This document shows positions 3,331 to 60,215 of a stretch of DNA of 64,000 bases, piece by piece (positions within the stretch are counted from its first letter, which is position 1; each line of letters begins with the position of its first letter). Origin of the DNA: Nannocystis bainbridge (GTDB taxonomy: Bacteria > Myxococcota_A > Polyangia > Nannocystales > Nannocystaceae). The stretch lies in the NCBI RefSeq assembly GCF_028368995.1, contig NZ_JAQNDL010000002.1, positions 481,724 through 545,723 on the forward strand, written 5' to 3'. Below the pieces are notes generated by a model. That model worked only from the letters and a program-made list of their open reading frames with translations. It was not told the DNA's origin and did not search any database. Made by a program: the position numbers and the translations under genes.

Positions 3331-3497
3331 TTCGGACGCATCGAGATCGAGTGATGCGCGACCGGTCCTCTCTGCGGAATTTCGAGGCGACTGCCTTAAG
3401 CGGAGCCGCGAACATTTAAGAGCTCGCGGCGATTGTTTAAGCGCTACGGGCGAGGCGCGCCGCGGCCCGGCTCATGGCGATCGGATAGGCTCGCCGG

Positions 3498-4970
3498 ATG
3501 TTTCGTGACGAATTGATTGCGTTCTCCTGCGTGCTCGCGCTGGCCGCGTGCGGCCCGATCGCAGGCGACTCCACCGGGAGCAGCAGCACCGATGCCAGCG
3601 CTGGCTCGACCACGACCGGCGAGCCGACCTCGACCGGCGTGCAGCCGACCACCGGCGAGGCGACGAGCACGACCGGCGAGCCCACCACGCTGACGAGCAC
3701 GACCGAGGCGAGCACGACCACGGGTGAGCCCGGCCTGTGCGACGTCGTCCAGGGCGATCACGCCGCCGCCTGCCGCGAGCCGGATTGTGCCATCACGGTC
3801 GACCTCGAGATCCGCTGTCAGGACGGCGGGCTCGGGGTGCCCGGGATGGGCGTCGCCGCGGCCCCCGACGCGACCTGGCTGGTGACCGCGAGCTGGAACG
3901 AGGCGCTGCTGTTCCGCGCCGACGCCGACGGCGCCGAATCGATCGGCGGCGTGATCGATGCTTACCCGGGCAAGCAATTCCAGATGACCCTGGGCCCCGA
4001 CGGGGCGCCGCACATCGTCGTCGATGCCACGGCGATCCCGAACTACACGGACGGGCTGCGCCACCTCGGGCTGGTCGGAGGGTCCTGGACCGACACGCTC
4101 GTCACCGACGGCGAGCAGTACGTGCCGGCCTTCGACGTCAAGGTCGACAGCGCGGGCCGCCCGCACGTGTTCTTCGACGGGCCGAAGAACGCCGACTACG
4201 CCGCGGCCGTGCGCGAGGGCGAGACGTGGACGACCCATGACATCGCCTCGGCGGGGTCGTGGGCGCGCTTCGTGCTCGGGCCCGACGACCAGGAGATCGC
4301 GCTCGGCGTCGCCGACGATCATCTGCATGCGCTCGTCGACGGCGAGGCGGTGCCGCTCGGATCGAGCTTGCCGCTGACCGTGCGCTACCAGGCCGCCTCT
4401 GCCCCCGTCGGTCCGACGATCGCGGCGGCGCTGCAGCTCGGCGACGCGCTCGAGGTGGCGTGGGGACCGAACGGCGGCGCGGCGGGGATCGCCGGCACGG
4501 CGCCGGTCGGCAACCCCTGTGGATCGATCGACGCCGACGGGCCGGACGCCACGTGCCCGGGCCCGTGTCAGGACGATAGTGTCGGCATGCAGCCCGAGGC
4601 GTTCTCGTTCGCGCGCACCGCCGACGGCGTCGGCTGGCTCGCGTGGGTGGTGACGCATCGCGATGTCGCGTCCCACTACGAGCTGGGGCAGATCGAAGGC
4701 GATTATTTCTGCGTGGGCCAGGTGGACAGCGATGCGACCACCGGGGTGCTGCACCTCGCCCGCGTGCCGCTCGGCGCCGGCGCGCCGACCGAGGTCCTGG
4801 TCCTGCCGGTCGCCGACGTCGTCCCCTCGGGACCGCCTCAGGGCGGCCCTCGCCTCAGCGCGGTGACGCTCGAAGCTTTTGATCGTGACCTCGCGCTGGC
4901 GCTGCGCCTGCGCGACGACGTGGACTCGTACATCCGCGTGATCCGCCTGGACACGCTGGCGCTGCCGTAG
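3498..4970 (+). CDS. Hypothetical secreted lipoprotein with a Thr/Ser/Gly/Glu-rich linker
   Basis: Signal/lipobox 'VLALAACG', then a low-complexity 'STTTGEPTSTG' linker, then a globular domain with coding-like GC3. The antisense 532-aa ORF is Arg-rich nonsense. Confidence 0.6.
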   Translation: MFRDELIAFSCVLALAACGPIAGDSTGSSSTDASAGSTTTGEPTSTGVQPTTGEATSTTGEPTTLTSTTEASTTTGEPGLCDVVQGDHAAACREPDCAITVDLEIRCQDGGLGVPGMGVAAAPDATWLVTASWNEALLFRADADGAESIGGVIDAYPGKQFQMTLGPDGAPHIVVDATAIPNYTDGLRHLGLVGGSWTDTLVTDGEQYVPAFDVKVDSAGRPHVFFDGPKNADYAAAVREGETWTTHDIASAGSWARFVLGPDDQEIALGVADDHLHALVDGEAVPLGSSLPLTVRYQAASAPVGPTIAAALQLGDALEVAWGPNGGAAGIAGTAPVGNPCGSIDADGPDATCPGPCQDDSVGMQPEAFSFARTADGVGWLAWVVTHRDVASHYELGQIEGDYFCVGQVDSDATTGVLHLARVPLGAGAPTEVLVLPVADVVPSGPPQGGPRLSAVTLEAFDRDLALALRLRDDVDSYIRVIRLDTLALP

Positions 4971-13915: not shown

Positions 13916-15037
13916 ATGTCCTTCTCATCTTTTCGAACGACGGCCCGCCCTTCCTCTCTCTTTTGCGCAGTGCTGATCGCAGCGGCTTGCGGCGAAGATC
14001 CGCAGATCACCAGCGCGACCGGGGCTTCGGCCGCGGACTCCGAGACCTCCGGTGACACCTCCGGCGGCGATCCGACCGGGGGGACCGAATCGACGGCGAC
14101 GTCGGCGGACACCTCCGTCCCGACCTCGACCTCGCCCGCGACGACGGAAGGCACCGAAGGCACGACGCCCGGCACCTCGACGGACACCGGTCCGATGGCG
14201 ACCAGCCTGGCCACTGACACGACCACGGAGACCGACACCACGGTCGCCACGACCGGCGAGACGAGCGAGACCGGCGTGACGAGCGAGACCGGCGAGACGA
14301 GCGAGACCGGCGAGACCGGCGAGACCGGCGTCGATCCGTGCGGGCCCGACAGCGAGGGGCCGCTGCTGAACTGCTTCACCGGCTGTCCGCCCGAGCTGTT
14401 CGCGGTCCCGCCCTACGTCGAGGAGTTCGACGATCCGGCGCAGTACGAGGCTCACTGGAACGGCACCTGGGCGGCGCCGACGGTGGCAGGTGGCTCGCTG
14501 AATTTCGGCCCGCACCCGATGACGGACGACTGGTGGGACAACTACAGCCCGACCTGGTCGAAGGAGACCTACGGCGACGCGCTGCTGTGCGCGCGCATCC
14601 GCCTGACGCCGCCGATGATCGCCGTCCCGGACGAGGAGATGTTCGAGATCACGTCGCGCGTGCCGGCCGACGCCGCGTTCGAGAGCGGGGCGATGTCGCT
14701 GGGGCTGCTCACCGCAGACGCGCGGCTGGTGTTCCGCACCCGCATCGACGAGGCCGAGTGGCAGGAGCACGCCGAGGCGACCTTCCCGCTCGACCGCGGC
14801 ACCGAGAACACGCTCGACGTGCTGATCTACGCCCAGGGCGACAAGTACGTGGCCGAGCTGCGCAACGCCGCGTACCCGGGCGAGATCACGGTGCTGCCGG
14901 CCTCGGCGCAGTTCAGCCCGACCGGCCTGGTGACGCTGCTCGGGTGGCGCAACAGCATGGCGCTCCACGTCGATCGCCTGGTGCTCGGCGGACCCGCCGC
15001 GGACGTGCTGCCCCGCCTCGTGGCCGAGCTGCCGTGA
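13916..15037 (+). CDS. Hypothetical secreted lipoprotein with a Thr/Ser/Glu/Gly-rich linker (possible concanavalin/LamG-like C-terminal domain)
   Basis: Lipobox 'LIAAACG'. Long low-complexity linker with internal DNA tandem repeats (14251-14332, 'GETSETGETSETGETGETG'). C-terminal globular domain. Confidence 0.55.
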   Translation: MSFSSFRTTARPSSLFCAVLIAAACGEDPQITSATGASAADSETSGDTSGGDPTGGTESTATSADTSVPTSTSPATTEGTEGTTPGTSTDTGPMATSLATDTTTETDTTVATTGETSETGVTSETGETSETGETGETGVDPCGPDSEGPLLNCFTGCPPELFAVPPYVEEFDDPAQYEAHWNGTWAAPTVAGGSLNFGPHPMTDDWWDNYSPTWSKETYGDALLCARIRLTPPMIAVPDEEMFEITSRVPADAAFESGAMSLGLLTADARLVFRTRIDEAEWQEHAEATFPLDRGTENTLDVLIYAQGDKYVAELRNAAYPGEITVLPASAQFSPTGLVTLLGWRNSMALHVDRLVLGGPAADVLPRLVAELP

Positions 15038-15114
15038 GGGCCGGCGAGGCCGCGCGAGCGAACGGGCGATCGCGGTGAGAGACGCGCGCTCGCGGCCCAA
15101 GGTCGCGGGCGTCG

Positions 15115-15290
15115 ATCGCGGGCCTTCGGGGCCCTTTCTCGAGGGACAAGTCGAGGCGTGCCGGATCTTCGCGGCGCGAGGCGCCGAGCGGCCGACGCGG
15201 GCTTGTCGCGGCTCGGTGATCACCGGTGGTGATGCGCGGCGAAGATCATCGCGGGCCTTCGAAAACCTGTCTCGAGGGACATGTCGATTT
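15115..15290. repeat. Direct repeat (about 45 bp x2) containing CATG-core palindrome variants (TCGAGGGACAAGTCGA / TCGAGGGACATGTCGA)
   Basis: 'ATCGCGGGCCTTCG...CTCGAGGGACA(A/T)GTCGA' appears at about 15115-15158 and again at 15246-15290. Confidence 0.6.
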
Positions 15291-15323
15291 GCGGGCCGCT
15301 CGCGGGGCCGCGCCCGGCCTCAT

Positions 15324-15342
15324 TGTAAACTCCCGGTTTACA
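15324..15342. promoter_or_regulatory. Perfect 7-bp inverted repeat TGTAAAC-N5-GTTTACA, candidate regulator-binding site upstream of the 15417 gene
   Basis: AT-rich dyad in a 70% GC background, about 75 bp upstream of the start codon. Confidence 0.3.
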
Positions 15343-15416
15343 GCGCAGCCAATGCAAGATCGCTTCCTTCTGCCTCGCGGCCGCGTCATCGTCGAGGTGG
15401 GAGGATGGTTTTGGAC

Positions 15417-16016
15417 ATGACCTTAAAGACATCTCATCACGAGCACGCCCTGAGGACCGCGGCGGGGTTGGTCGGACGGCCGCGGCTGCGGTTCGGGCTG
15501 ATGTTGACGCTGGTCGCCGCCTGCGGGCCCGGCCTGGGCGAGGGCAGCGACGGCGCGAGCGATGGTTCGACGGCCACCACCGGGGCCGACGCGGCCACGC
15601 TGGCGACCACGAGCGCTGGCGCGAGCGCGACCGGCGACGACGCTTCGACGGGGGAGGCGACCACGACGGCGACGACCAGCGGCGAGGCGAGCACCACCAC
15701 CGGCGCCGACACGCTGCTGACCGACGCCACGACCTTCGCCACCACCACCTCGACGAGCTCGGGCACCAGCGAGACCGGCGAGACCACCGGCGAGACCACC
15801 GGCGATACGACCGGCACTGATACCGACACCGGCACCAGCACCGGCGAGCTCGACGACTGCGTCGATCGGCGCTCCGGCGAGATCGATTTCCGGTGCTGCG
15901 AGGCCCAGGACTGGCGGCCGCAGCCGCAGTGCACCCCGTGGGGTCCGCCGGCGCCGCCGGCCGCGGGGCACGATCGCCTGCAGCGGGCGCGGGCGGCCCG
16001 CGGGAGGTTCGTATGA
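15417..16016 (+). CDS. Hypothetical lipoprotein with a Thr/Ser-rich linker
   Basis: GGGAGGA RBS upstream. 'LMLTLVAACG' lipobox. Cys-containing C-terminal segment. Stop overlaps the next ATG (ATGA). Confidence 0.5.
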   Translation: MTLKTSHHEHALRTAAGLVGRPRLRFGLMLTLVAACGPGLGEGSDGASDGSTATTGADAATLATTSAGASATGDDASTGEATTTATTSGEASTTTGADTLLTDATTFATTTSTSSGTSETGETTGETTGDTTGTDTDTGTSTGELDDCVDRRSGEIDFRCCEAQDWRPQPQCTPWGPPAPPAAGHDRLQRARAARGRFV

Positions 16017-16843
16017 CAAGCCTCGATCTGCGCGGCGCGGCCGACCGCGCCGACCTGCGGCTCGGCGCTGGCGCGCTGGCGGGCCTCGACGAATTCGATC
16101 GTCAGTCGGCGATCCTCACCTGGCGCGGGCGCATGCTCAACGAGCACGTCTCGGCCCGCGTGTTCTCGACGCTGGCGCGCCAGCTCGAGCGCGCGGGCGT
16201 GCGCGGCGATCGCCCGGCCCGCGTCGGGGCGATGGTCGCCGAGGAGTGGCGCCACGCCGATCGCTGCGCCGCGGTCGTCGAGGTGCTCGGCGGCGATCCG
16301 GTGGTCGCGCTGCCGGCCCTGCCGCCGGTGCCCGAGCACGAGGACGCGGACGCGATCGAGGCGGTGCTGCGCAACGTGATCAGCGTGTCGTGCCTGAGCG
16401 AGACGGTGGCGGTGGCGCTGATCGACGCCGAGCGGCGCGCGGCCGGGCCGCCGGCGCTGCAGCGGCTGCTGGCGGAGATCCTCGCCGACGAGGTCGGGCA
16501 CGCGCGGTTCGGCTGGCGGCTGGTCGAGGAGTACGCGCCCTCGCTGTCGCCGACCCTGCGCGAGCGCCTCGGCGACTACCTGGTGATCGCGCTCGACGAC
16601 CTGGCGACCCACGAGCTGTCGCACTTGCCGGCCCGCCCGAGCCCGTCGAGCGCGGCGGAGGCGGTCGGGGTGTGCGACGGCCACGCGGCCCGCCGGCTGT
16701 TCTTCGCCACGGTGAACGAGGTCATCGTGCCGGGCCTGGAGGCGTCGGGGCTGCCGGCTCTGTCGGCGTGGCGCGCGGCGCAGGAGCTCGGCGCCTGGGC
16801 GAGCGCGCAGAAGGTCGACCCGCGGGCCCGCATGACCGCCTGA
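16013..16843 (+). CDS. Ferritin-like diiron-carboxylate family protein
   Basis: Two ExxH motifs ('VAEEWRHA', 'LADEVGHARF') in helical context. Translationally coupled to the upstream lipoprotein gene. Confidence 0.5.
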   Translation: MTSLDLRGAADRADLRLGAGALAGLDEFDRQSAILTWRGRMLNEHVSARVFSTLARQLERAGVRGDRPARVGAMVAEEWRHADRCAAVVEVLGGDPVVALPALPPVPEHEDADAIEAVLRNVISVSCLSETVAVALIDAERRAAGPPALQRLLAEILADEVGHARFGWRLVEEYAPSLSPTLRERLGDYLVIALDDLATHELSHLPARPSPSSAAEAVGVCDGHAARRLFFATVNEVIVPGLEASGLPALSAWRAAQELGAWASAQKVDPRARMTA

Positions 16844-16865
16844 GCGCGGCGATCGAGGGGGCGAG

Positions 16866-17175
16866 TCGACGTGTCGCGGCGGACATGTCGTCGCTGAAGG
16901 TGCGCGAAGGGACATGTCGTGACGGGCATGTCCTTTCGTGGTTCAGCGGACATGTCCTCGCAGAAGGTGGCGAATGGACATGTCGTAAAGGGCATGTCCG
17001 TTCGTGCTGCAGCGGACATGTCGGCGCAGAAGGTGTGCGAATGGACATGTCGTAAAGGGCATGTCCTCTCGTGGTTCAGCGCGCGCTGGACGGCCGTCGC
17101 GGTCACCTTCATGGACATGCCCGATCGGGCATGTCCTCGGGAGCATGTCCGTATCGACATGTCCGCGAGGACATG
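16866..17175. repeat. Array of CATG-core palindromes (GGACATGTCC family) containing a 67-bp higher-order tandem repeat x3 (16881-17080)
   Basis: Three near-identical 67-bp units of the form [GGACATGTCN-(18 nt)-GGACATGTCGTNAAGGGCATGTCC-(15 nt)]. Five further palindromes follow up to 17175. Lies between convergent genes. Confidence 0.85.
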
Positions 17176-17183
17176 CCGCTTCG

Positions 17184-18107
17184 TCAGGCGATCGGCGTGC
17201 GCGCCAGCTCGCCGGCCAGGGCGCGGTAGACCGCCTGGCGGGGGTCGTGGTCGCGGTACAGCAGGCGGAAGTAGTCGATCAGCAGGGCGACGCCGGGGAA
17301 CAGGCGGCGCAGGCGGCCGGCTCGCAGCTCGGCCTCGATCAGGTAGAGCGGCAGCACGGCGACGCCCTCGCCGGCGAGCACCTGGACCTTGACGGCGGCG
17401 CCGAGGCCGAGCCAGCGGTGGCCGCCGAAGCGGGGCAGGGCCGGGGCCGCGGGGGCGCCGCTGAAGTAGTGGAAAAGGGGCGTGCGGGCGTCGATGTCGA
17501 GCAGGACGTGGCGCGGGACGTCCTCGGGGCGGGTCAGCGGCAGGCGGTCGAGCAGCTCGGGCGCGCCGACGAACGCGTAGCGCTCCTCGTGCAGGCGCTC
17601 GGCCAGCAGGCGGCTGTCCTCGAGCTTGGCCGAGGTGACGGCGCAGTCGACCAGGCCGCTGCGCAGGCGGTCGACGATCTCCTGACCTGACCCGAAGAAC
17701 AGGTGCATCGTCACCCGCGGCAGGGCGGCGCGCAGCTGCGGCAGGGTGGGGACGATCCACGACATGCCGAGCTCGAAGCGGGTGCCGAGGGTGAGCTCGA
17801 TCGGCGGCGGGTCGTCCTCGCCGCGGACCACGCGGACGCACGCGGCCGCCTCGCCGAGGCAGGCGCGCGCGCGCGGCAGCAGCGACAGGCCGGCGTCGGT
17901 GAGGCGCACCGAGCGGGTGGTGCGGACGAACAGGCTCGCGCCGAGCTGCTGCTCGAGCAGGCGGATCCGCTGACCGACGGCGGCGGGGGTCAGGGCGAGC
18001 GCGCGGGCGGCTGTCCTGAAGTTCAGGTGCTCGGCGGCGGCGACGAAGCAGCGCAGGCTGTCGATCGCGGGCAGGTCGCTGGCGGCCGGCGGCGCGGGCC
18101 GGTTCAC
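17184..18107 (-). CDS. LysR-family transcriptional regulator
   Basis: N-terminal HTH 'LRCFVAAAEHLNFRTAARALALTPAAVGQRIRLLEQQLGASLFVR' and LysR substrate-binding region. GTG start overlaps the stop of the upstream gene. Confidence 0.75.
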   Translation of the reverse strand: MNRPAPPAASDLPAIDSLRCFVAAAEHLNFRTAARALALTPAAVGQRIRLLEQQLGASLFVRTTRSVRLTDAGLSLLPRARACLGEAAACVRVVRGEDDPPPIELTLGTRFELGMSWIVPTLPQLRAALPRVTMHLFFGSGQEIVDRLRSGLVDCAVTSAKLEDSRLLAERLHEERYAFVGAPELLDRLPLTRPEDVPRHVLLDIDARTPLFHYFSGAPAAPALPRFGGHRWLGLGAAVKVQVLAGEGVAVLPLYLIEAELRAGRLRRLFPGVALLIDYFRLLYRDHDPRQAVYRALAGELARTPIA

Positions 18108-19084
18108 GGGTGGTCCTGGCGGTACGACAGCAGCGCCGCCGCGTGCGCGCGCTCGGCCCGGGCCTGGGCCCGCTCGCGCGGCTCGTCCCAGGCGGCGGCG
18201 GCCAGCCAGTCGGCCAGCGGATCGATGGCCGCGGCCAGGCTGCGAGCGCGACGCAGCAGGGCGATCCGGTCGGACAGCCACGGCTCGCGGATCGCCCGCG
18301 TGGCCTGCATCGTGTCGGCTCGTGGATCGATGGTCACGGTCACCGGCGGCAGCGCGGCCAGGTCGAGCGCCGGATCGCCGAGGCGCAGCGCGTCCCAGCC
18401 GAGCACGTACCACGCCCCCGCCGGCGTCACGCACAGGTTGCCGGGCCGCAGCAGGGCGCCGTGGACCGGCAGGTCGGCCGGCACGGCGAACGAGTTCGAG
18501 GCGCGCACCTGGGCGGTCACGCGGTCGACCTCGGCGGCCAGCCAGGCGAGCGTGGCGGTGTCGACAAAGGCCGGGCCGGCGGCGCGAGCGGCCCGCAGGG
18601 ACGCGGTGCAGCGGACGAACTGGTCGACGAGGTAGGCCTCGCAGCAGGTCGGCGCCGGCCCGGGCAGGCGCGAGGCGAGGTCGCGGTCGGCGTGCAAGCG
18701 GCCGATCATGGTGGTGAGGACCCGGGCCAGATCTGGCGCTTCGGACAGGTCGCGCACGACCACGCCGTCGACGTGCTCGCGCAGCAGCCCGGCGTACGGC
18801 GTGTCGACGATCTCGAGCCAGCCGCAGATCCGCGGCGCGTGGTAGCGGGTGGCCAGCGTCGCGCCGAGGTCGTGCCAGCGGCGCAGGGCCGCGTGGCCGG
18901 CCGGGTCGGCGGCGAGCTCGAGGTCGAAGCGCGCGCCGGCGTCGGCGATCGAGAACGAGGCCCGCGAGGCGGCGGCCCGCTCTGCCACGTGACGCACCGT
19001 GAGCGTCGCCGGGTCGAGCGCGAGTCCGGCCGCGAGCATGCGGAACTGGGCCGTGACGCGCGGGATGAGCTCGGACAAGATCAT
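18104..19084 (-). CDS. Aminoglycoside-phosphotransferase (APH)-fold kinase-like protein
   Basis: APH-like catalytic segment 'VHGALLRPGNLCV' (similar to HGDLHPGN). About 326 aa. Confidence 0.55.
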   Translation of the reverse strand: MILSELIPRVTAQFRMLAAGLALDPATLTVRHVAERAAASRASFSIADAGARFDLELAADPAGHAALRRWHDLGATLATRYHAPRICGWLEIVDTPYAGLLREHVDGVVVRDLSEAPDLARVLTTMIGRLHADRDLASRLPGPAPTCCEAYLVDQFVRCTASLRAARAAGPAFVDTATLAWLAAEVDRVTAQVRASNSFAVPADLPVHGALLRPGNLCVTPAGAWYVLGWDALRLGDPALDLAALPPVTVTIDPRADTMQATRAIREPWLSDRIALLRRARSLAAAIDPLADWLAAAAWDEPRERAQARAERAHAAALLSYRQDHP

Positions 19085-19222
19085 CGAGGCGGGACACTAT
19101 ACGCCCGCCCGGGCCGCGGCAGGAGGGCCCCCGCAGATCGGCCGCTGCGCCCGGGATCGCGCGGCCCAGGCGGGTCGCCCGGCGCGCGCCTCGGGGCCGG
19201 CCGGCGTGTTAGCCTGGCGAAC

Positions 19223-19471
19223 ATGCCCACGTCCGACCCGATGCAGCGGCTGGCCTCGCGGGGCGTCGCCGCGGCCGCCGTGATGGTCCTCCTCGGCGGC
19301 GCCGCCCTGCTCGCCCTCGAGAGCTGCGCCCAGACCGGCGGCAGCAAGCCGATCCAGGCGGCCGAGCCCCGCCCCGCGCAGGACCCGGGCCCCGCGCCGC
19401 AGCCCGAGCCCGAGCCGCAGCCGGATCCGATCGTGCCCCGTCCAGAGGACCACCCGCCGCCGGTGACGTGA
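19223..19471 (+). CDS. Small proline-rich lipoprotein (PQPEPEPQP repeats)
   Basis: 'VMVLLGGAALLALESCA' signal, then a P/Q/E-rich tail. Paralogue of 19631..19936. Confidence 0.5.
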   Translation: MPTSDPMQRLASRGVAAAAVMVLLGGAALLALESCAQTGGSKPIQAAEPRPAQDPGPAPQPEPEPQPDPIVPRPEDHPPPVT

Positions 19472-19487
19472 GCGCGGGCGGGAGCCG

Positions 19488-19575
19488 AAAGGACATGTCC
19501 ATGAGGACATGCCGCAAAGGGCATGTCTCCACGGACTTGTCCATGAGGACATGTCGTTTCAGGCATGTCCTCCGG
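19488..19575. repeat. CATG-core palindrome cluster (6 units)
   Basis: GGACATGTCC, GACATGCC, GGCATGTC, GGACTTGTCC, GACATGTC, GGCATGTCC at about 15-bp spacing, 17 bp after a stop codon. Confidence 0.8.
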
Positions 19576-19630
19576 GACAGAGCGGCCGCGCGCGGTGTGG
19601 CCGGGGCGGCGGCGTGGTAGCGTGAGGTCG

Positions 19631-19936
19631 ATGTCGAAGCCGCCCGAACCACCCGCCACCGCACTCCCGTCCCGTCGCACGCCGCTGGCGCTCGCGGCTC
19701 TGGTGCTCTCGCTCGCGGCGGCCGGCTGCACCGGCACCGCCCCGGCGCCGAAGACCGGCGAGAAGGAAGCTGCGCCCAAACAGCCCGGCGACCAGCCCTA
19801 CGCCCCGCCGCCCGACGCCAGGGTCGAGCCGCGGCCGCAGCCCGTGCCGCAGCCGGAGCCGCAGCCGGAGCCGCAGCCCAGGACCGACCCCGAGCCGCAG
19901 CCGGTCCCGCGGCCCCACCTGCCGCCGCCGACCTGA
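19631..19936 (+). CDS. Small proline-rich lipoprotein (PQPEPQPEPQP repeats)
   Basis: 'LALAALVLSLAAAGCTG' lipobox followed by a PQPEP repeat tract. Confidence 0.5.
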   Translation: MSKPPEPPATALPSRRTPLALAALVLSLAAAGCTGTAPAPKTGEKEAAPKQPGDQPYAPPPDARVEPRPQPVPQPEPQPEPQPRTDPEPQPVPRPHLPPPT

Positions 19937-19941
19937 GCGGG

Positions 19942-20964
19942 ATGCGGGAGCCTGCGCACGAGCCCCACGGATCTGCCGACTGGCTCCGCGGGCCGCGCTT
20001 CGATCTTTCGCTGATCGTCGGCGTGCTGGCGCTGGCGCTGGTGCTCGGCGGGGCGGCGTGCGCCTCGCCGGCGCTGTTCGCCGCGGTGCTCGCCCTCGAC
20101 TTCTGGCTGCTGGCCTACCCGCACGCGGCCTCGACCTTCACGCGCATCGCGTTCGATCGCCAGGCGGCGCGCGCCCACGGATTCTTGCTGTTCGGGCTGC
20201 CGCTGCTGGTGTTCGCGGGCACGGCCGGGGCGGTGGCGCTCGGCGGAGTGCTCGCGCTCAACACGATCTACTTCTATTGGCAATCGTGGCACTATACCCG
20301 CCAGAGCTACGGGATCGCCCGCGCCTATCACCGCCATGCAGGGGCCGATCCGGGGGGTGATCGGCTCAGTGATCTGGTGGTGTTCGCCTGGCCGCTGTGG
20401 GGCCTGCTGCACCGCGCGCACCAGGAGCCGCGGCTGTTCTACGGCGGGCCGATCTGGATGCCGCCGGCGCCGCGGTTGCTGGTGATCGTCGCCGGGGCGC
20501 TGGCCGTCGGGGCGCTGGCGCTGTGGACGGTCCGGCACGTGCGAGCTGCCGGCGCCGGCCGGCCGCGCAGCACCGGGCACGCGCTGTTCGTGCTGTCGCA
20601 CGTGGTGATCACGGCGGTCAGCTACCTCGTGGTCCGCGAGATCACCCTCGGCTGGCTCTTCATCAATATCTGGCACAACGCGCAGTACCTGCTGTTCGTG
20701 TGGGCGATGAACGCCCGCCGGTTCCGCGGCGGGATCGACCCGCGCCGGCCGTTCCTGTCGCGCCTGTGCCAGCCCGACCAGGTGCTGCGCTATGTGCTGG
20801 TGTGCCTGGCGCTGTCGTCGGCCTTCTACTTCGCGCTCGGGCAGGCGACGGGGCGGATGACGTGGGAGGTGCTGCCGCTGGTGCTGGTGTGCCATCAGAC
20901 TGTCAACTTTCACCATTACGTGGTCGACGCGGTGATCTGGCGCTCGCGCGGCCGGGCCGCATGA
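19942..20964 (+). CDS. Hypothetical polytopic integral membrane protein
   Basis: About 8 hydrophobic segments, Trp/Tyr-rich loops. Coding GC3. Confidence 0.6.
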   Translation: MREPAHEPHGSADWLRGPRFDLSLIVGVLALALVLGGAACASPALFAAVLALDFWLLAYPHAASTFTRIAFDRQAARAHGFLLFGLPLLVFAGTAGAVALGGVLALNTIYFYWQSWHYTRQSYGIARAYHRHAGADPGGDRLSDLVVFAWPLWGLLHRAHQEPRLFYGGPIWMPPAPRLLVIVAGALAVGALALWTVRHVRAAGAGRPRSTGHALFVLSHVVITAVSYLVVREITLGWLFINIWHNAQYLLFVWAMNARRFRGGIDPRRPFLSRLCQPDQVLRYVLVCLALSSAFYFALGQATGRMTWEVLPLVLVCHQTVNFHHYVVDAVIWRSRGRAA

Positions 20965-21045
20965 TGCTTGGGGCATGCCTGATGAGTCATGTCCTCGAGG
21001 GCATGTCTCGCGGGGCATGTCCCGGAGGTCATGCCTCGTCGAGCG
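20955..21045. repeat. CATG-core palindrome cluster overlapping the ends of two convergent genes
   Basis: GGCATGCC, GTCATGTCC, GGCATGTC, GGGCATGTCC, GTCATGCC. Confidence 0.75.
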
Positions 21046-21666
21046 CGGCGGCGCGGGCCAGGTGCTCGCGGACGCGGCGGACGTCGCGGCCGAGGGCGGC
21101 GGCGCGCTCGCGGTGGGCGAAGGCGACGAAGCGGCGCAGCTCGGCGTCGTCGGGCCGCTCGCGCACGAGCGCCTCGTAGACGGCGAACACGCCCGGCCAG
21201 TCGGGCTCGGGGCAGCGCCAGCGCCGGACCTCGGCGCAGCCCTCGGCGAGGGTGTACTCGTCGAGCCAGCGGTCGTCGCCGTCGCCGGTCGAGCGCACGA
21301 ACAGGCGCGCGTCCGCGAGGTGCACGGCCAGGCGATCGAGCGCCCAGTGGAGGTTGCGCGCGTCGATGTAGCAGACGTCCGACAGCAGCTCGAGCGACAG
21401 CAGGTCCTGACCGGGCTCGCCGTGGTCGAGCGACCACCCCCACGCGTGGGCGTCGCGGTTGATGCGTCGGAGCGGCCAGTGCTGCGCCGGCAGGGCCTCG
21501 ATCGCGGCGTCGAGCTCGGCGGTGGCGCCCGCTCGCACGGGGATCAGGGCCCGGTAGTCGTCGAGCCACGGCGTGACCTGCTGGAACCACAGGCGATAGC
21601 GGCCGTAGAAGGCCGGGTCCTGGTCGCGGACAAAGGCGCGGACGACGGGGAGAGGCTGCGGGTGCA
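21029..21666 (-). CDS. Hypothetical cytoplasmic protein (212 aa)
   Basis: ORF starting 'MHPQPLPVVRAFVRDQDPAFYGRY' with coding GC3. No recognisable motif. Confidence 0.45.
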
Positions 21667-21869
21667 TGCGGGCCCGGGGCCAGCATGGCACGCGCGGGCG
21701 CATCGGGGCGAGCGAACCCGAAAGCGGAGGGGACAATCGCGGGCGGTGGCGGTCGTGGGCCGAGTTCGAGGTCGCGGGTTCGGGCGGCGGGGCGTCGGCG
21801 AACTCGGGGTCGTGCGAGCCGCGGCGACCGATCGTGACAGCGAGGCGGGGCGCGTGCGAGGATGCTCGC

Positions 21870-23120
21870 ATGCGCGGGAACGGGCTGCTGTGCGGGGTGT
21901 TGTGCGGGGTGCTGGGGCTGCCGGCGTGCGGCGAGCCGAGCCCGGGCGGGGCGAGCGAGACGGGGACCTCGACCGGCACGGGCCCGGGGAGCACGAGCAG
22001 CACGGGCACGACGGGCGAGGCGCCCACGACTTCCGTGGCGCCGACGTCGGGCAGCGGCACCGGCGGCGAGACCTCCTCGACGACCGGCACGACCACCGCG
22101 GAGACCACGACCACCGAGGCGCTGACCTCGACGAGCACGAGCACGAGCACGAGCACGTCCACGACCACGACCACCGGCGACACCACCGACGGCGACACCA
22201 CCGACGGCGACTCGCTCGACGACCTGCTCACCCTGCAGCACGTGCAGGTCAAGGGCACCCACAACAGCTATCACGTCGAGCCGCTGCTGCCGTTCGATCC
22301 GAGCCACGAGTACAGCCACGCCCCGCTCGACATCCAGCTCGGCCAGCAGGGCGTGCGGGCCTTCGAGCTCGACGTCCACAAGGGCATCGGCGAGTTCGAG
22401 GTCTATCACATCACCGTGATCGACTCGTCCGCGACCTGCACCGACATCCCGGAGTGCCTCGGCATCGTGCGCGACTGGTCGCTGGCGCACCCGGGCCACC
22501 TGCCGATCGTGGTGTGGATCGAGATCAAGGACTCGACCGGCGGGCTGCCGATCGGCGCGTCGGACCTCGACGCGCTCGACGACACCATCCGCGAGGTTCT
22601 GCCGCCCGAGCAGCTGTTCACGCCCGACGACCTGCAGGCCGGGCACCCGAGCGTGCGGGCGGCGCTCGAGGCCGACGGCTGGCCGACGCTGGGGCAGCTG
22701 CGCGGGCAGGTGCTGATGGTGCTGCTCAACGTCGAGGACGGCCACGCGGAGAATTACACCGACGGGTTCACGTCGCTGGCCGGGCGGGCGATGTTCGCCC
22801 GGGCGACGCCGAATCAGTTCTCGGCCGGGTGGGCTGCGATCGCCAAGCTCGGGGTCGATCAGGACGGGCCGATCGCGGCGGCCCATGCGGCGTCGATGCT
22901 GATCGCCACCAACGTATGCGGGGCGGGCGACGCTGACGCCGCGTGCGCGGCCAAGGCGGAGCTCGCCAGGGCCGCGGGGATCCACATGCTCAAGGACGAC
23001 TTCCCGGCGCCCGTCGACGGGATGGGGTATTTCCTCGATTTCGCCGACGGCAACCCGGCCCGCTGCAACCCGGTGACGGCCCCGCCGGAGTGCACGAGCG
23101 TGGCGCTGGAGGACCTGTGA
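21870..23120 (+). CDS. Lipoprotein with Thr/Ser-rich linker and a phosphoinositide-phospholipase-C-like (PLC-like phosphodiesterase) domain
   Basis: Lipobox 'VLGLPACG'. Linker with STSTSTSTS and DTTDGDTTDGD DNA tandem repeats. 'VKGTHNSYH' motif typical of Ca-dependent PI-PLC-like phosphodiesterases. Confidence 0.55.
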   Translation: MRGNGLLCGVLCGVLGLPACGEPSPGGASETGTSTGTGPGSTSSTGTTGEAPTTSVAPTSGSGTGGETSSTTGTTTAETTTTEALTSTSTSTSTSTSTTTTTGDTTDGDTTDGDSLDDLLTLQHVQVKGTHNSYHVEPLLPFDPSHEYSHAPLDIQLGQQGVRAFELDVHKGIGEFEVYHITVIDSSATCTDIPECLGIVRDWSLAHPGHLPIVVWIEIKDSTGGLPIGASDLDALDDTIREVLPPEQLFTPDDLQAGHPSVRAALEADGWPTLGQLRGQVLMVLLNVEDGHAENYTDGFTSLAGRAMFARATPNQFSAGWAAIAKLGVDQDGPIAAAHAASMLIATNVCGAGDADAACAAKAELARAAGIHMLKDDFPAPVDGMGYFLDFADGNPARCNPVTAPPECTSVALEDL

Positions 23121-23494
23121 GGTCGGTGGTCGTGATCGTCGGGTTGCTGCTGGGCGGCTGCGGGCGCGGCGAACCGGCGCCGAGCCGGCCGGGTGGCGAG
23201 GCGGCGGGGAGCGTGGACGCGGCGGGGGCGACGAGGTCGGTGGACCCGGCGGCCACGATCCCGGATACGGTGTCGACCGCGGGCGAGGCCGCGAGCGGCG
23301 AGGGGCCGCCGGCGCAGCAGCGAGGCGTCGACGGTCGCTGCGAGCCGACGCCGAAGTCCGGCGCGCCGTGCCGCGAGGGCGACGGGTACTGCGTGCTGTC
23401 GTGGGGCGAGCCGGGCGGCCACAGCGAGGCGCTGTGGTGCCGCGGCGGGCGCTGGGTGCTGGAGCAGGAGGTCAACCTGCCGCGCGGCGGCTGA
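23117..23494 (+). CDS. Small lipoprotein; GTG start overlapping the upstream stop (GTGA)
   Basis: 'VVVIVGLLLGGCG' lipobox. 125 aa. Confidence 0.45.
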   Translation: MRSVVVIVGLLLGGCGRGEPAPSRPGGEAAGSVDAAGATRSVDPAATIPDTVSTAGEAASGEGPPAQQRGVDGRCEPTPKSGAPCREGDGYCVLSWGEPGGHSEALWCRGGRWVLEQEVNLPRGG

Positions 23495-23502
23495 TCGCCG
23501 GG

Positions 23503-23585
23503 GACATGTCGCAGAGGACATGTCCGAACGGGAATGACCTCGACGACATGCTCTATGGAGCATGTCCTGATGGACATGTCGAAGT
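23503..23585. repeat. CATG-core palindrome cluster
   Basis: GACATGTC, GACATGTCC, GGAATGACC, GACATGC, GCATGTCC, GGACATGTC starting 9 bp after a stop. Confidence 0.75.
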
Positions 23586-23676
23586 GCGGCTCGCGCGCGA
23601 CCGACGGTGCCGCCGCCTGGTCTCGTCTCGGCGCGTCTCCGCGTGACGCCCTGCGCCCCGCGTCTCGGCGCTCCGC

Positions 23677-25107
23677 TCAGGCCGGCGGGAGGGCGGCGAG
23701 CACCGACGCGGCGAAGCCGTCGAGGTCCCACGCGGCGCGGTCGTGGGTCATGCCGAGGCGGACGATCACGGCGTCGCGCGAGGGCACGACCAGCACGGCC
23801 TGGCCCTGGAAGCCGGAGGCCTGGAAGGCGTCGGCGGGCACGTGCGGCAGGCGGCGCTTGGCCGGGTCGGCCGGGTCGGGGGCGTTGGCCCAGAAGTGGG
23901 CCGCGTAGTCGCCGGGGCCGGTGCGGGTCGGCGTGCGGCTGTACGCGACCCAGCCCTCGGGCAGGATCCGCGCGCCGTCCCACACGCCGTCGCGCAGGTA
24001 CAGCAGGCCGAAGCGGGCCCAGTCGCGCGCGGTCGCGTGCACGAACGAGGACCCGAGGAAAGTGCCGGCGGCGTCGGTCTCGAACACGGCCGAGCGCATG
24101 CCGATCGGCGCAAACAGGGCCTCGTGGGGGAAGCGGTGGTAGTCCGCCAGCGCGGCGAACTGGTTACGCACGATCCAGCTGAGGATGTTGCTGGTGCCGC
24201 TCGAGTAGGCGAACGCGGTGTCGGGGTCGCGCGCGAGCGGGCGCGCGAGGGCGACGTCGGCGGCGTTGGTGACCTCGAACAGCATGTGGGTGGCGTCGGC
24301 GAGCGGGCCGTAGCGCTCCTCGAATTGCAGGCCGCTGCTCATGCGCAGCAGCTGATCGAGGGTGATCGCGCGGCGGGCGTCGCCGGCCCACGCGGGCACC
24401 GGCGCGGGCGCTTCGCGGGCGAGCAGGCCGCGGCCGACGAGGATCCCGACCAGCGCGCCGGTGATGCTCTTGGCCATCGACCAGCCGAGGTGACGGGTGT
24501 CGCGGTCGAAGCCGTCGGCGTAGCGCTCGGCGACGATGGCCCCGCCGTGCACGACGACGACGGCGCGGGTGCGACGCAGCGCTTCGGGGTTCGGCTCGGT
24601 GAAGGCGGCGGCGACGGCCGCGTCGAGCGCGGCGCGATCGAGGCCGGGTGGATCGGCGGCGATCCGCTCGCCCTCGCCGGCGGGCCACGGCGCGTCCGCG
24701 GCCGCAGCGTGAGTCACGGCGAGGGTCTGGGCCTGCAGGGCGTCGGGCTCGACGCCGATGGCGAGGGCGCAGCCGAGGCCGTCGCGGTGGACGGCGGTGC
24801 GCCCGGCCAGCCCGAGCACGCTGGCGTGGACGCGCCGGCGCTCGCGGTCGACGGTGAAGGACACGTACCACTGCGGCGCGAGGTCCTCGGCGCCGACGCG
24901 GTCGGGATCGCGGCCGGCGACGAACACGGCCGAGCAGGCGTTCTTGGCCACGTAGCCGGTCGCGGTCGGGAGGATCCAGCCGGCCGCGAACACCAGCGCG
25001 GCCAGCAGCACGAGGACGAGGCCGACGAGGAGCCGCCGACGCAGGCGAGAGGGTGCAGGCGTGGCGGTCACGTGCAGGCGAGTGTACCGCCTCGGCGCGT
25101 CATGCAT
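23677..25107 (-). CDS. Beta-lactamase-family serine hydrolase, membrane-anchored
   Basis: N-terminal TM helix. SxxK 'SMAKS'. Paralogue of 5417..6565 with extensive shared motifs ('VVHGG.IV.ERYA', 'LPEGW.A.S'). Confidence 0.7.
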   Translation of the reverse strand: MHDAPRRYTRLHVTATPAPSRLRRRLLVGLVLVLLAALVFAAGWILPTATGYVAKNACSAVFVAGRDPDRVGAEDLAPQWYVSFTVDRERRRVHASVLGLAGRTAVHRDGLGCALAIGVEPDALQAQTLAVTHAAAADAPWPAGEGERIAADPPGLDRAALDAAVAAAFTEPNPEALRRTRAVVVVHGGAIVAERYADGFDRDTRHLGWSMAKSITGALVGILVGRGLLAREAPAPVPAWAGDARRAITLDQLLRMSSGLQFEERYGPLADATHMLFEVTNAADVALARPLARDPDTAFAYSSGTSNILSWIVRNQFAALADYHRFPHEALFAPIGMRSAVFETDAAGTFLGSSFVHATARDWARFGLLYLRDGVWDGARILPEGWVAYSRTPTRTGPGDYAAHFWANAPDPADPAKRRLPHVPADAFQASGFQGQAVLVVPSRDAVIVRLGMTHDRAAWDLDGFAASVLAALPPA

Positions 25108-27140: not shown

Positions 27141-27240
27141 AATGGACATGTCCTTGGGGACATGTCATTCTTCGGAGTCGGGGCCGCGTGAACGTGGTTC
27201 CTGGTGGACATGACTGTTTCGACATGTCCCAAGAGACATG
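27141..27240. repeat. CATG-core palindrome cluster
   Basis: GGACATGTCC, GGACATGTCA, GGACATGAC, GACATGTCC, GACATGG starting 17 bp after a stop. Confidence 0.8.
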
Positions 27241-27330
27241 GGCGGTGCAGCACGGACGCGCGCCTCCTGGGTCCACGGGCGGCGTGCGATCGCGGCGCGC
27301 GATGGGCGAGTCATGGGCTATGCTCGGAAG

Positions 27331-35014: not shown

Positions 35015-35100
35015 TGTCTCGTGAGACATGCATGAAGGGACATGTCCTCGGGTTTATGCGCATAAGCGCAGGTACGAAGGGACATGTCCTCGGGTTCATG
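35015..35100. repeat. CATG-core palindrome cluster with a duplicated 'GAAGGGACATGTCCTCGGGTT' unit flanking a TTTATGCGCATAA palindrome
   Basis: GACATGCATG, GGGACATGTCC x2. Starts 9 bp after the stop of the 34803 gene. Confidence 0.8.
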
Positions 35101-35220
35101 TGCCGGGGTACAGGCGCTGACCTCGGCGGGCAGCCACGGCGCGGGCCGCTAGTTCGGCCCAGCGGACGGCTTCTCGAACACCACGGCGCCTTCTTTGACG
35201 ACCCGCGACCACGTTGTGGG

Positions 35221-36525
35221 CTAGTTCGGCCCGGCGGACGGCTTCTCGAACACCACGGCGCCTTCTTTGACCACCGCGACCACGTTGTGGATGTGCTCGA
35301 TCTGCGACAGGTCGCCGTCGATCACCACGAAATCGGCCAGGAACTCGGGGCGGATCGCGCCGATGCGGTCGTCGGCTCGCAGCAGCTTGGCGGCGTCGGT
35401 GGTGGCGGTGGCGAGCGCCTCCATCGGCGTCATGCCGACGTCGTGGACGAACACGTCGAGCTCGCGGGTGCTCTCGCTGAAGGCGGTGTAGACGGCGTCG
35501 GAGCCCATGACGATGGTGACGCCGGCGGCGTGGGCGGCCCGGGCGGTGGCGACGTTGTCGGCGATGAATGCGTCGAAGGCGGCCCGCTTGTCGGGGGAGA
35601 AGCCGAAGCGCTCGATGTTGTCGCGGTAGTAGCGGTTGTGATGGATGGTCGGCACGTAGGCGACGCCGCGCTCGCGCATGGCGGCGAGGGTCTCGGGCGA
35701 GAGCGTGCGCGGGTGCTCGACGCTGTCGGCGCCGGCGCGCACGATGTCGGGGGTGACGGTGCCGAGGGTGTCGTGCACGGCGACGGGGATGCCGTGGGCG
35801 TGGGCGATGTCGACGGCGGTCTTGATCTCGTCGAAGGAGTAGGTGCGCTCGCCGGTGAGGTCGTCGTCGCTGCCGGTCGAGGCCCACAGCTTGACGACCT
35901 TGACGCCGGCGGCGATCTCCCGCCGCACGGTGGCGGCGACCTGCTCGGTGCCGTCGGCCTGGCCGGGGCGTGTCGACTCCGTGGGCGTGAGCCGCGACGA
36001 CCACACGCCATCGGCGGCGCCGAAGATCCGCGGGCCGACGAGCTCGCCGGCCTCGATGCGCGCGGCGGTCTCGAGGTCGAGGTGATTGTCGGAGCCGAGG
36101 TCGCGGATGGTGGTGACGCCGAGCGAGAGCAGGGTGCGGCCGTTGGCCTCGACCAGCGGGACGAGGCGGTCCTTGGGCTGGGAGATCTGGAACGGGTCGT
36201 TCGGGGCGCGCTCGCCCCACGCGGGATCCCAGCAGAAGGTGATGTGCGTGTGGGCGTCGATGAGGCCGGGGATCGCGGTGTAGCGGCCGTGGTCGACGAC
36301 GCGGGCGCCGGCCGGCAGCGGCTCGCCGGCCGCGAGCACGCTGTGGAAGCGCTTGCCCTCGACGACGACGGCGCCGCCCTCGACGACCTGGTGCGGGGCG
36401 GTGACGACGCGCGCGAACTTGTAGACGGTGAGGCTGGAGGCGGGGATGTCCGCAGGGACAGGTCGGTCGGGGACCGCCTGCTCGGGCTTGCAGCCGAGGC
36501 CGGTCGCGGCGAGGAGGCCGAGCAT
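35221..36525 (-). CDS. Amidohydrolase-family metal-dependent hydrolase, lipoprotein
   Basis: 'GLIDAHTHI' metal-binding HxH motif, 'DAVYTAF', 'VAVHD'. 'MLGLLAATGLGCK' lipobox. Confidence 0.7.
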   Translation of the reverse strand: MLGLLAATGLGCKPEQAVPDRPVPADIPASSLTVYKFARVVTAPHQVVEGGAVVVEGKRFHSVLAAGEPLPAGARVVDHGRYTAIPGLIDAHTHITFCWDPAWGERAPNDPFQISQPKDRLVPLVEANGRTLLSLGVTTIRDLGSDNHLDLETAARIEAGELVGPRIFGAADGVWSSRLTPTESTRPGQADGTEQVAATVRREIAAGVKVVKLWASTGSDDDLTGERTYSFDEIKTAVDIAHAHGIPVAVHDTLGTVTPDIVRAGADSVEHPRTLSPETLAAMRERGVAYVPTIHHNRYYRDNIERFGFSPDKRAAFDAFIADNVATARAAHAAGVTIVMGSDAVYTAFSESTRELDVFVHDVGMTPMEALATATTDAAKLLRADDRIGAIRPEFLADFVVIDGDLSQIEHIHNVVAVVKEGAVVFEKPSAGPN

Positions 36526-41861: not shown

Positions 41862-42149
41862 GTGGGGCCCAGTGTGCCTTGCCGCGCGGGCGACAGACAC
41901 TGCGACGTGAGGGCTCGCTTCCGCGCCGACGCTGCGGCGGCGCGAGCGACCTCCGGCGGCGCCGCCCCGGTCGCCTCGCAGCGCCGATGCGGCGCCCGGG
42001 GTCGGGCGCGGGCGGCGGGATCACGGGCGCGTCGTGAGGCTCGTCGCGCGGCGCCGCCGTCGGTGACGTCGTGGCGCGCGAGCCGGCGATCTCTGTGCGG
42101 CGACTGGACCTCGCGTCCGGCGGGGCGGAGCGCTGCTGTCCCGGGGAGC

Positions 42150-42197
42150 ATGACTTTTCAGTCATGTTCGCGGGGACATGTCCTTTGCAGCTTCTCG
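42150..42197. repeat. CATG-core palindrome cluster
   Basis: GCATGAC, GTCATGTTC, GGGGACATGTCC immediately downstream of the stop of the vWA gene (minus strand). Confidence 0.7.
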
Positions 42198-43255: not shown

Positions 43256-43343
43256 GCGCTGTTCTTGACCGCCGACGCCACGAACGGCACGCGAGCGACG
43301 TGCACGGCGTCTCACCGGCGCGCGCGCGGCCTGGTACTGTCGC

Positions 43344-49199: not shown

Positions 49200-49225
49200 A
49201 CCCCACCACAATCAGGAGCTGTGCG

Positions 49226-52324: not shown

Positions 52325-52347
52325 GCCATCCAAAGGGAGGAAATGCC

Positions 52348-54361: not shown

Positions 54362-54395
54362 AGGACATGTCGTAAAGGGCATGTCCTTGGGGGCT
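54362..54395. repeat. CATG-core palindrome pair, identical to units in the 16.9-kb array
   Basis: GGACATGTCGTAAAGGGCATGTCC begins 14 bp after the stop at 54348. The same 24-mer occurs at about 16978 and 17045. Confidence 0.85.
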
Positions 54396-60104: not shown

Positions 60105-60139
60105 GCGCCGAGGCTCGTCGGCGACGGACGACGCGGATG

Positions 60140-60215
60140 ACATGGCGATTCGGACATGCTTATTCGAGCATGTCCGAATCGACATGGTTTCGAGGGCATG
60201 TCCTTCGGGACATTC
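60140..60215. repeat. CATG-core palindrome cluster including a perfect 28-bp palindrome TCGGACATGCTtattcGAGCATGTCCGA
   Basis: GACATGGC, GGACATGC, GCATGTCC, GACATGGT, GGCATGTCC, GGACATTC between convergent genes. Confidence 0.8.

Follow-up and report, generated by a model that had tools for sequence, protein, structure and literature searches.

Extragenic palindromes and hairpins at gene ends

The closest described counterparts of the element considered here are the REP and BIME sequences of enterobacteria and the REPINs of Pseudomonas. Like it, they are short extragenic palindromes concentrated behind the 3′ ends of genes and in convergent gaps, and they form inverted doublets able to fold into hairpins in single-stranded DNA or in mRNA. 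Near-identical doublets are occasionally repeated in tandem together with their flanks (PMC3116915), and in P. fluorescens no other higher-order arrangement of REPINs is as common as this one (Bertels and Rainey, PMC3116915). A role of these sequences in 3′-UTRs as terminators or stabilizers has been proposed or demonstrated, E. coli REP325 being both a partly Rho-dependent terminator and an mRNA stabilizer (bioRxiv 10.64898/2026.03.23.713779). Intrinsic bidirectional terminators are a second point of comparison, being G+C-rich stem-loops that are the same on both strands and directly follow convergent stop codons. Minisatellites or VNTRs, such as the mycobacterial MIRUs, consist of intergenic head-to-tail units of 40-100 bp, and the length of a locus varies between related genomes. 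In the inverted DUS pairs of Neisseria and the stem-loop motifs of mycobacterial 3′ regions, a short conserved sequence is reused genome-wide and forms a hairpin after genes.

Genomes of Nannocystis are large (11-13 Mb in the assemblies compared), contain about 72% G+C and are rich in natural-product gene clusters. In the window, i.e. the whole stretch of 64,000 nucleotides of Nannocystis bainbridge DNA analysed here, three units of 67 bp are arrayed between a ferritin-like gene and a LysR-family gene (Table 1). This array very probably arose by tandem triplication, at this one locus, of a module that belongs to a Nannocystis-wide family of extragenic palindromes. The 10-bp palindrome GGRCATGYCC and a 4-nt spacer after it make up the family unit, and units succeed each other in exact 14-bp phase, in runs of 2-7 and typically 5-6.

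The likeness to REPs and REPINs has limits. There is no sequence similarity, and no Rfam match was obtained at E <= 1 over 15-24 kb of the window. REPs are imperfect palindromes of 20-40 nt with variable spacing, whereas the Nannocystis element combines a perfect-consensus 10-bp palindrome, a rigid 14-bp phase and an invariant CATG. This tetranucleotide lies inside the stem, whereas the conserved tetranucleotide of REPs and REPINs is 5′ of it. Nannocystis copies, moreover, persist at orthologous sites from one species to the next, in contrast to strain-variable REPs. Unlike intrinsic terminators, the Nannocystis arrays have no U-tract, place several hairpins in series and share a conserved stem sequence, where terminator stems are normally idiosyncratic. 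Unlike VNTRs of the MIRU type, the 67-bp units originate from a genome-wide palindrome family and have diverged by 10-13%. In contrast with DUS pairs and the mycobacterial motifs, the Nannocystis motif is self-complementary, tandemly phased and virtually absent from coding DNA, and a part in DNA uptake finds no support. Finally, GGACATGTCC is a literal match to the half-site RRRCATGYYY of p53 response elements. This is a coincidence of sequence in a bacterial genome that implies no p53-family protein, and p53 elements have variable spacers of 0-13 bp versus 4 bp in the Nannocystis arrays. Literature searches for the motif in bacteria and for repeats of Nannocystis or myxobacteria returned nothing relevant, and the string GGACATGTCC retrieves only p53 among binding-site papers; the palindrome family is apparently undescribed.

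The 67-bp array of N. bainbridge

TRF detects a tandem array of period 67 at 16879-17081 (3.0 copies, 88% matches, score 322), in agreement with the threefold higher-order repeat of CATG palindromes reported in the initial annotation. Pairwise global alignment gives 86.6% identity for units A-B and 89.6% for both B-C and A-C, with a single 1-nt indel, in B. Since the units differ by ∼10%, the array cannot be an artefact of assembly collapse or expansion. Each unit contains three GGRCATGYCS palindromes, in the order single palindrome (GGACATGTCS), linker of 18-19 nt, palindrome pair 14 bp apart and tail of 14 nt. The composition had been described correctly, and the corrections are trivial: linkers are of 18-19 and 14 nt, not 18 and 15, and unit A reads GTGACGGG where a consensus GTNAAGGG had been given. 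CATG spacings in the array are 29, 14 and 24, so that the 14-bp phase is broken and the hairpin pair remains intact. The five further palindromes announced downstream are present, in exact 14-bp spacing.

The array sits in a 340-bp spacer (16844-17183), 37 nt downstream of the ferritin-like stop codon, and gene calls and Pfam matches bear out the convergent setting that had been assigned to it. With head-to-tail units in the range of 10-100 bp and 3.0 copies of a period of 67, where two suffice, it is formally a minisatellite and corresponds to an ‘ordered REPIN cluster’. As 67 is not a multiple of 3, consecutive units are in different frames and the array is non-coding. A coding repeat is thereby ruled out, and the minus-strand ‘MSxRTCP’ open reading frames are by-products, as already suspected. 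A CRISPR array is dismissed as well, given repeats of 10 bp and spacers of 4 bp (versus repeats of 23-50 bp and unique spacers of similar length) and 67-bp units that copy one another. Derivation of the unit from a decayed five-slot module (5 x 14) is conjecture, as no more than 2-3 of the 10 positions in either ‘degenerate slot’ agree with the consensus. No promoter-like site was found in or around the array in a scan of 15000-24000, and a promoter is dismissed accordingly.

Table 1. Genes, repeat units, hairpins and palindrome arrays of the window
Feature	Coordinates	Strand	Remarks
Ferritin-like gene, 276 aa	16013-16843	+	100% identical to NCBI Nannocystis bainbridge ferritin-like domain protein; weak Pfam Ferritin match; GC-frame gene call
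Repeat unit A, 67 bp	16881-16947		Palindrome 16881-16890, 19-nt linker, palindrome pair 16910-16933, 14-nt tail
Hairpin of unit A	16903-16940	+	Palindrome pair and flanking GAAG/CTTTC; 16-bp stem, 6-nt loop; -27.9 kcal/mol in plus-strand RNA, -14.0 in minus-strand RNA (ViennaRNA)
Repeat unit B, 66 bp	16948-17013		Linker shortened by 1-nt deletion
Hairpin of unit B	about 16970-17006	+	-25.5 kcal/mol
Repeat unit C, 67 bp	17014-17080
Hairpin of unit C	about 17037-17073	+	-20.8 kcal/mol
Five palindromes	17113-17178		Exact 14-bp phase, typical family member; ends 5 nt before LysR stop codon
LysR-family regulator	17184-18107	-	Pfam HTH_1 (1.4e-20) and LysR_substrate (4.8e-25)
Family array X, 6 slots	19491-19573		23 nt after stop of small putative lipoprotein gene (19223-19471); orthologous in all six Nannocystis genomes
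Family array Y	20957-21039		Occupies whole convergent gap between two stop codons; orthologous in five genomes
Family array Z, 5-6 slots	23502-23584		Convergent junction
Family arrays, 2 + 3 units	27144-27246		Follow stop of FGE-sulfatase-domain gene
Family cluster	35024-35106		42-bp internal duplication; convergent junction
Family array, 3 units	42146-42186		32 nt beyond 3′ end of gene 42212-43837 (-)
Two-unit hairpin	54363-54389		18 nt past stop codon; 25-mer identical to hairpin of units B and C
Family array, 5 units	60138-60206		Convergent junction

A phased palindrome family

At no more than one mismatch, GGACATGTCC occurs 35 times in the window, compared with 2.0 +/- 1.4 times in shuffled sequences, and 34 of the 35 matches fall outside called genes, which occupy 79% of the window. 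Thus, the palindrome is both over-represented (35 versus 2 expected) and extragenic, as is typical of sequences of the REP/REPIN type. The phase is strict. A count over 168 kb from Nannocystis gives 110, 70, 47, 29 and 12 CATG-to-CATG distances of 14, 28, 42, 56 and 70 bp, respectively, against one of 13 bp and two of 15 bp. Positions around the palindromes are enriched in A/T for a genome of 72% G+C, with A at frequencies of 0.37-0.39 before and T at 0.36-0.45 after.

About 15 array loci are found in the 64-kb window, a density that would amount to a few thousand copies in a whole genome. Loci of five Nannocystis species contain 13-20 CATG pairs in 14-bp phase per 20 kb, versus 0-1 in each of 10 outgroup loci (Nannocystaceae/Polyangia). 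A metagenome scan with a two-unit pattern retrieved at least 120 contigs, mostly of 69-77% G+C; one array-bearing contig encodes a protein whose named relatives all belong to Nannocystis or to unclassified Myxococcales MAGs. On these counts, the family is restricted to Nannocystis and close relatives. Phage origin is rejected, as even a two-unit match is present in only 4 of 2.9 million viral contigs.

The triplication had been taken for the only place where the element is amplified. It is the sole higher-order palindrome array (period >28) within the window, but arrays of 36, 37 and 50 bp exist at other loci in Nannocystis-like metagenome contigs (37 bp x4, 36 bp x4.5, 50 bp x2.5 and 36 bp x2.5 among the matches listed). 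Hence, local amplification is a recurrent property of the family, and the repeat as an event is ordinary, namely the local amplification of an extragenic palindromic element. Perfect 14-bp runs, evidently recent expansions, are also found among the matches listed (x8, x7 and x4 in contigs L067, L073 and L092). Within the window, a 42-bp duplication of the palindrome motif is seen at 35038/35080, and an identical 25-mer is shared by two unlinked loci, 16976/17043 and 54363.

Location of arrays relative to genes

Array loci in six Nannocystis genomes, 34 in number, were classified with the GC-frame gene caller. Convergent junctions account for 21, tandem junctions after an upstream stop for 10 and apparently divergent ones for 3; none is inside a gene. 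Two of the three apparent exceptions are orthologues of the window array behind a small lipoprotein gene that the caller missed. Tandem arrays mostly lie 4-40 nt past the upstream stop and at most 146 nt. In metagenome contigs, which are randomly oriented, the contexts among the matches listed are convergent (71), tandem (28), divergent (4), inside called genes (12) or at contig ends (12). The preference for convergent over tandem junctions is about 2.5:1. In most arrays, the first CATG comes about 10-30 nt after the stop codon, a 3′-end location of the kind expected of terminators. Some arrays fill the entire gap between two genes, and their outer CATG overlaps both stop codons (TGA within CATGA), e.g. 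array Y and its orthologues.

Hairpins and pairing between neighbouring units

The spacer between the ferritin-like and LysR genes folds exceptionally well on both strands, at -197 kcal/mol (z = -10.4) for plus and -156 kcal/mol (z = -9.1) for minus. Within the 67-bp units, hairpins have stems of 14-16 bp and a 6-nt loop, with about -14 kcal/mol on the minus strand, and units A and B differ in one stem pair by a switch from G·U to U·G. The five-palindrome array that follows folds equally on both strands (-40.8 and -41.0 kcal/mol).

Pairing in the family at large was assessed by shuffling arms and spacers among units; since orthologous loci are not independent, the resulting statistics, like those of covariation, are indicative rather than exact. 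Complementarity is above the shuffles for neighbouring units (z = +3.1) and below them for units two apart (z = -3.5), while palindromy within the unit is below them too (z = -2.3). The spacers on either side of a unit pair are also complementary to each other (z = +2.5), and units three apart give no signal of nested pairing in the shuffle test (z = 0.3), though RNAalifold draws nested structures. Neighbouring units such as GGACATGCTC/GAGCATGTCC are mutual reverse complements. Such complementarity beyond the consensus indicates that adjacent units form a hairpin with the spacer as loop. RNAalifold further finds, in orthologous arrays, 5 and 6 pairs kept through changes on both sides. Thus, the inverted doublet and hairpin typical of REPs and REPINs are found here too (z = +3.1 and +2.5; -21 to -28 kcal/mol per doublet). 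Each 10-bp palindrome as an independent site for a protein dimer is rejected, palindromy within units being below the shuffles. No clear fixed folding register emerges in 10 arrays of five units.

Non-Watson-Crick stem positions carry G·T rather than A·C in 68-72% of cases, on the G-rich strand, as could result from mutational skew or from one DNA strand folding on itself. As for the strand that matters, hairpins of the 67-bp repeat are twice as stable on the plus strand, and this strand folds better in 36 of 44 arrays of genome loci; these loci, however, are syntenic and share one orientation. In tandem contexts (n=23), the antisense strand is slightly better folded (mean difference +3.2 kcal/mol, not significant). 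In metagenome contigs, hairpin strength tracks the strand with G-rich flanks (GC skew; Spearman rho = -0.49, p = 4e-9). The plus-strand bias is therefore rejected as evidence that selection acts on sense-strand RNA: in randomly oriented contigs the better-folding strand follows the GC skew of the flanks, not the upstream gene.

An intrinsic terminator, taken as a G+C-rich hairpin directly before a U-tract (five or more T among 8 nt), is not found in 16881-17180. The scan of 15000-24000 gave three sites, so canonical U-tract terminators are rare in this part of the window; a single one, at 19538, touches a family array. With no U-tract after its stems, the 67-bp array is not a canonical intrinsic terminator, and family members that extend from stop to stop in compact convergent gaps leave no room for a U-tract.

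Conservation of arrays and history of the spacer

Arrays X, Y and Z were aligned slot by slot over five or six Nannocystis species. Pairwise identity is 0.97 in CATG, 0.58 in the arms and 0.32 in the spacers, compared with 0.81 at four-fold degenerate sites of the adjacent gene. Orthologous arrays have the same unit number in all species and keep their position, and there is little conservation beyond the last unit. Position, core, phase and length are thus held while the remainder is near-random, which points to constraint or to continual unit-wise regeneration and argues against decaying junk.

The ferritin-like/LysR locus was compared with its orthologues in five other Nannocystis species and in ten other Nannocystaceae/Polyangia genomes. 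A ferritin-like gene followed by a convergent LysR gene is common to the whole genus and to two outgroups. The spacer is hypervariable, from gene overlap up to ∼480 bp, with independent segmental duplications in relatives. Both genes overlap by ∼50 bp, with no array, in N. radixulma and two metagenomic lineages, and a gap of 9 bp separates them in one outgroup (L010). In N. exedens, RBIL2, N. punicea, N. pusilla and two metagenomic lineages the spacer measures 210-480 bp, and its palindromes differ in number and arrangement; in N. pusilla and L023/L024 this state is accompanied by duplicated copies of the gene 3′ end. Among the Nannocystis species compared, the 67-bp unit is found at this locus in N. 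bainbridge only, and its junction has no match in the scan of the metagenome collection. At least ∼28 bp of the overlap-state sequence are present twice in the window, at the 3′ ends of the ferritin-like and LysR genes, bracketing the array region. This doubling suggests that the spacer was born from duplication of a segment formerly shared by both genes. As the genes overlap and lack an array in three lineages, this gene pair can do without one.

The locus had been flagged as a likely hotspot of copy-number variation. Structural instability over evolutionary time is indeed seen, in spacers ranging from overlap to ∼480 bp and in independent duplications, but two findings argue against a currently active slippage or contingency locus, namely 67-bp units that are 10-13% diverged and have not been re-homogenized, and a unit number that does not change between species in orthologous 14-bp arrays.

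A proposed REP-like 3′-end element

What best accounts for the locus is a local triplication of a hairpin-forming family module that acts as a REP-like 3′-end element. As a whole, this statement is on balance probable. Its functional part, REP-like action at 3′ ends, is by itself more tentative and falls a little short of probable. The relevant molecule would be RNA and the effect termination or stabilization. Wherever either strand is single-stranded, as DNA or RNA, units next to each other would fold into stem-loops of 10-16 bp with the spacer as loop. As pairing is possible on either strand, transcripts entering the spacer from either gene would end in a series of stable hairpins. These could, in REP-like fashion, shield mRNA 3′ ends from 3′-to-5′ exonucleases. 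They could also attenuate read-through into the convergent gene by pausing, collision or factor-dependent termination, instead of release by a hairpin plus U-tract. The triplication would postdate the separation of the N. bainbridge lineage and be due to palindromes that either mispaired on slipped strands or recombined unequally. The triplicated units would since have diverged, adding redundant hairpins and no new function.

Several observations count against the REP-like reading. The arrays have no U-tract and their hairpin strength has no sense-strand bias. An RNA hairpin has no obvious need for an invariant CATG or for spacers of exactly 4 nt. At the ferritin-like/LysR locus, three lineages do without an array, and the convergent bias is what would also be given by a harmless repeat accumulating in promoter-free DNA.

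Alternative explanations

A first alternative is that the arrays are not RNA elements but a phased binding platform for a sequence-specific factor, which would bind GGRCATGYCC every 14 bp and load at convergent gene ends. Each site would be turned by 120 degrees relative to the last, so that one face of the helix is presented again after 42 bp. Such a factor might be a nucleoid-associated protein, gyrase, a transcription roadblock or a CATG-specific methyltransferase or reader, among others. The platform could, for example, handle positive supercoiling or block read-through, and the 67-bp repeat would merely multiply sites. Such a platform would account for a CATG that is nearly invariant and a phase that is exact while spacers are randomized between species, for the unit number kept in orthologous arrays, for the strong preference for convergent junctions and for hairpin strength not biased to the transcribed sense strand. 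Nevertheless, it is unlikely. Defects of a palindrome are compensated in the neighbour and not within the unit, the opposite of what a dimer per palindrome predicts; non-Watson-Crick stem positions are mostly G·T on one strand, a trait of single-stranded folding and not of duplex recognition; and the 67-bp units break the 14-bp phase yet preserve the hairpin pair. Furthermore, the factor itself is hypothetical.

Selfish or neutral repeat DNA devoid of host function, whether REPIN- or MITE-like or made of 14-bp minisatellites generated by slippage, could likewise persist in promoter-free convergent gaps, and the 67-bp triplication would then be one more neutral duplication. The perfect recent 14-bp expansions, recurrent higher-order duplications, enrichment at convergent junctions, the three lineages without an array between the ferritin-like and LysR genes and the 25-mer identical at unlinked loci all agree with this. 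The stability of arrays at orthologous positions in six species, where polymorphism would be expected, makes it improbable, and so does the retention of CATG, phase and unit number beside near-random spacers, since junk would lose phase through indels. Moreover, REPs and REPINs are accompanied by a cognate RAYT (Y1 transposase) gene with repeats on its flanks, and domain scans of 24 neighbouring proteins of the window revealed no transposase or other mobile-element gene.

The initial annotation had envisaged a strong bidirectional terminator or insulator, and its hairpins, very stable on both strands, its convergent setting, the A/T-enriched palindrome flanks and the large interspecies differences in spacer length are to the credit of a canonical intrinsic terminator/insulator that is also a slippage-prone contingency locus, with copy number tuning both genes, but this combination is very unlikely given the absence of a hairpin with T-run anywhere in the array, units too diverged for homogenization by ongoing slippage, an array that overlaps neither promoter nor coding sequence (so that it is hard to see what switch a gain or loss of copies would operate) and relatives that function with overlapping genes and no array.

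Significance

The family is more interesting than the repeat. It is apparently undescribed, should by extrapolation number thousands of copies in each genome, and its 14-bp architecture is unusually rigid. The 67-bp triplication is mainly a possible typing marker and is an example of the local duplications to which hairpin clusters give rise. Sequence-specific recognition could be what keeps the phase strictly at 14 bp and CATG invariant. Along this line, it is tempting, if rather doubtful, to regard the arrays as a genus-specific ‘gene-end punctuation’ read by a dedicated factor, either a binder of duplex or hairpin DNA or of RNA at 14-bp/120-degree intervals, or a CATG-directed modification system. 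Were this so, the factor would impose the invariant core, exact phase and unit number and act preferentially where transcription converges, and the arrays would represent a new class of chromosomal cis-element together with a new trans-factor.

The family would also offer a clean natural system for the study of constraint on repeats, core and phase being frozen while the intervening sequence is free. As an abundant and recognizable 3′-end element, it would help to define transcription units and would supply portable terminator or stabilizer parts for myxobacterial engineering.

Origin of the ferritin-like/LysR spacer

In lineages without an array, the genes for the ferritin-like protein and the LysR regulator overlap by ~50 bp. 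At least ~28 bp of the segment shared in this overlap state is found twice in the window, on both sides of the array region. Because this stretch is doubled around the array region, the spacer looks, from sequence comparison, like a resolved gene overlap made by duplication.

Duplication of a gene 3′ end beside palindromes also occurs at the amidohydrolase locus, where a 72-bp tandem repeat (×2, 95% identical) copies the final ~70 nt of the gene, stop codon included. The duplication has left a relic 3′ end that adjoins a palindrome cluster, itself containing a 42-bp duplication. N. pusilla and L023/L024 share this arrangement at their ferritin/LysR locus, where a duplicated gene 3′ end adjoins palindromes.

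A frameshift past ~codon 58 disrupts the ferritin-like gene of N. pusilla Na p29, which points either to a pseudogene or to an error in the long-read assembly. Upstream of the window's ferritin-like gene, two genes for putative secreted proteins or lipoproteins carry in-frame repeats (9/18 bp and 6/12 bp) encoding Thr/Gly/Glu/Ser-rich low-complexity stretches. Across the window, cumulative GC skew rises steadily until ~46 kb, then is flat or slightly reversed to ~53 kb; gene orientation or a replication feature may lie behind this change.

Coordinates of the repeats, genes and compared regions
Feature	Sequence	Positions	Strand
Overlap-segment comparison regions	Window	16785-16843; 17184-17240
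	L016	3197-3225
Frameshifted ferritin-like gene	L005	10001-10800
72-bp repeat	Window	35148-35290
Amidohydrolase gene	Window	35221-36525	-
42-bp duplication	Window	35038/35080
In-frame repeats	Window	14251-14330; 15656-15845
GC-skew regions	Window	1-46000; 46000-54000
14-bp palindrome run ×8	L067	1-117
14-bp palindrome run ×7	L073	2036-2142
37 bp ×4	L097 (= L115)	1615-1766 (= 3436-3587)
36 bp ×4.5	L046	197-357
50 bp ×2.5	L105	484-609
25-mer	Window	16976-17000; 17043-17067; 54363-54387

Amplification and strand bias of the palindromes

Amplified palindromes are found in metagenome contigs, either as perfect 14-bp runs or as further higher-order arrays. A stop codon immediately precedes the array in 4/4 inspected amplified loci (L067, L073, L097 and L105). 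Within the window, the 25-mer GGACATGTCGTAAAGGGCATGTCCT is present in identical copies at two unlinked loci. The copies could stem from exchange between arrays, by ectopic conversion or transposition, or from convergence towards a hairpin that is favoured.

The hairpins are strand-biased. Over all arrays, including those of metagenome loci L029-L148 among the matches listed, folding is better on whichever strand has G-rich flanks (Spearman rho = -0.49). Read on this strand, G·T, and not A·C, occupies 68-72% of the non-Watson-Crick stem positions. The bias does not depend on the orientation of the upstream gene and may stem from replication-strand mutational skew or from the folding of one DNA strand.
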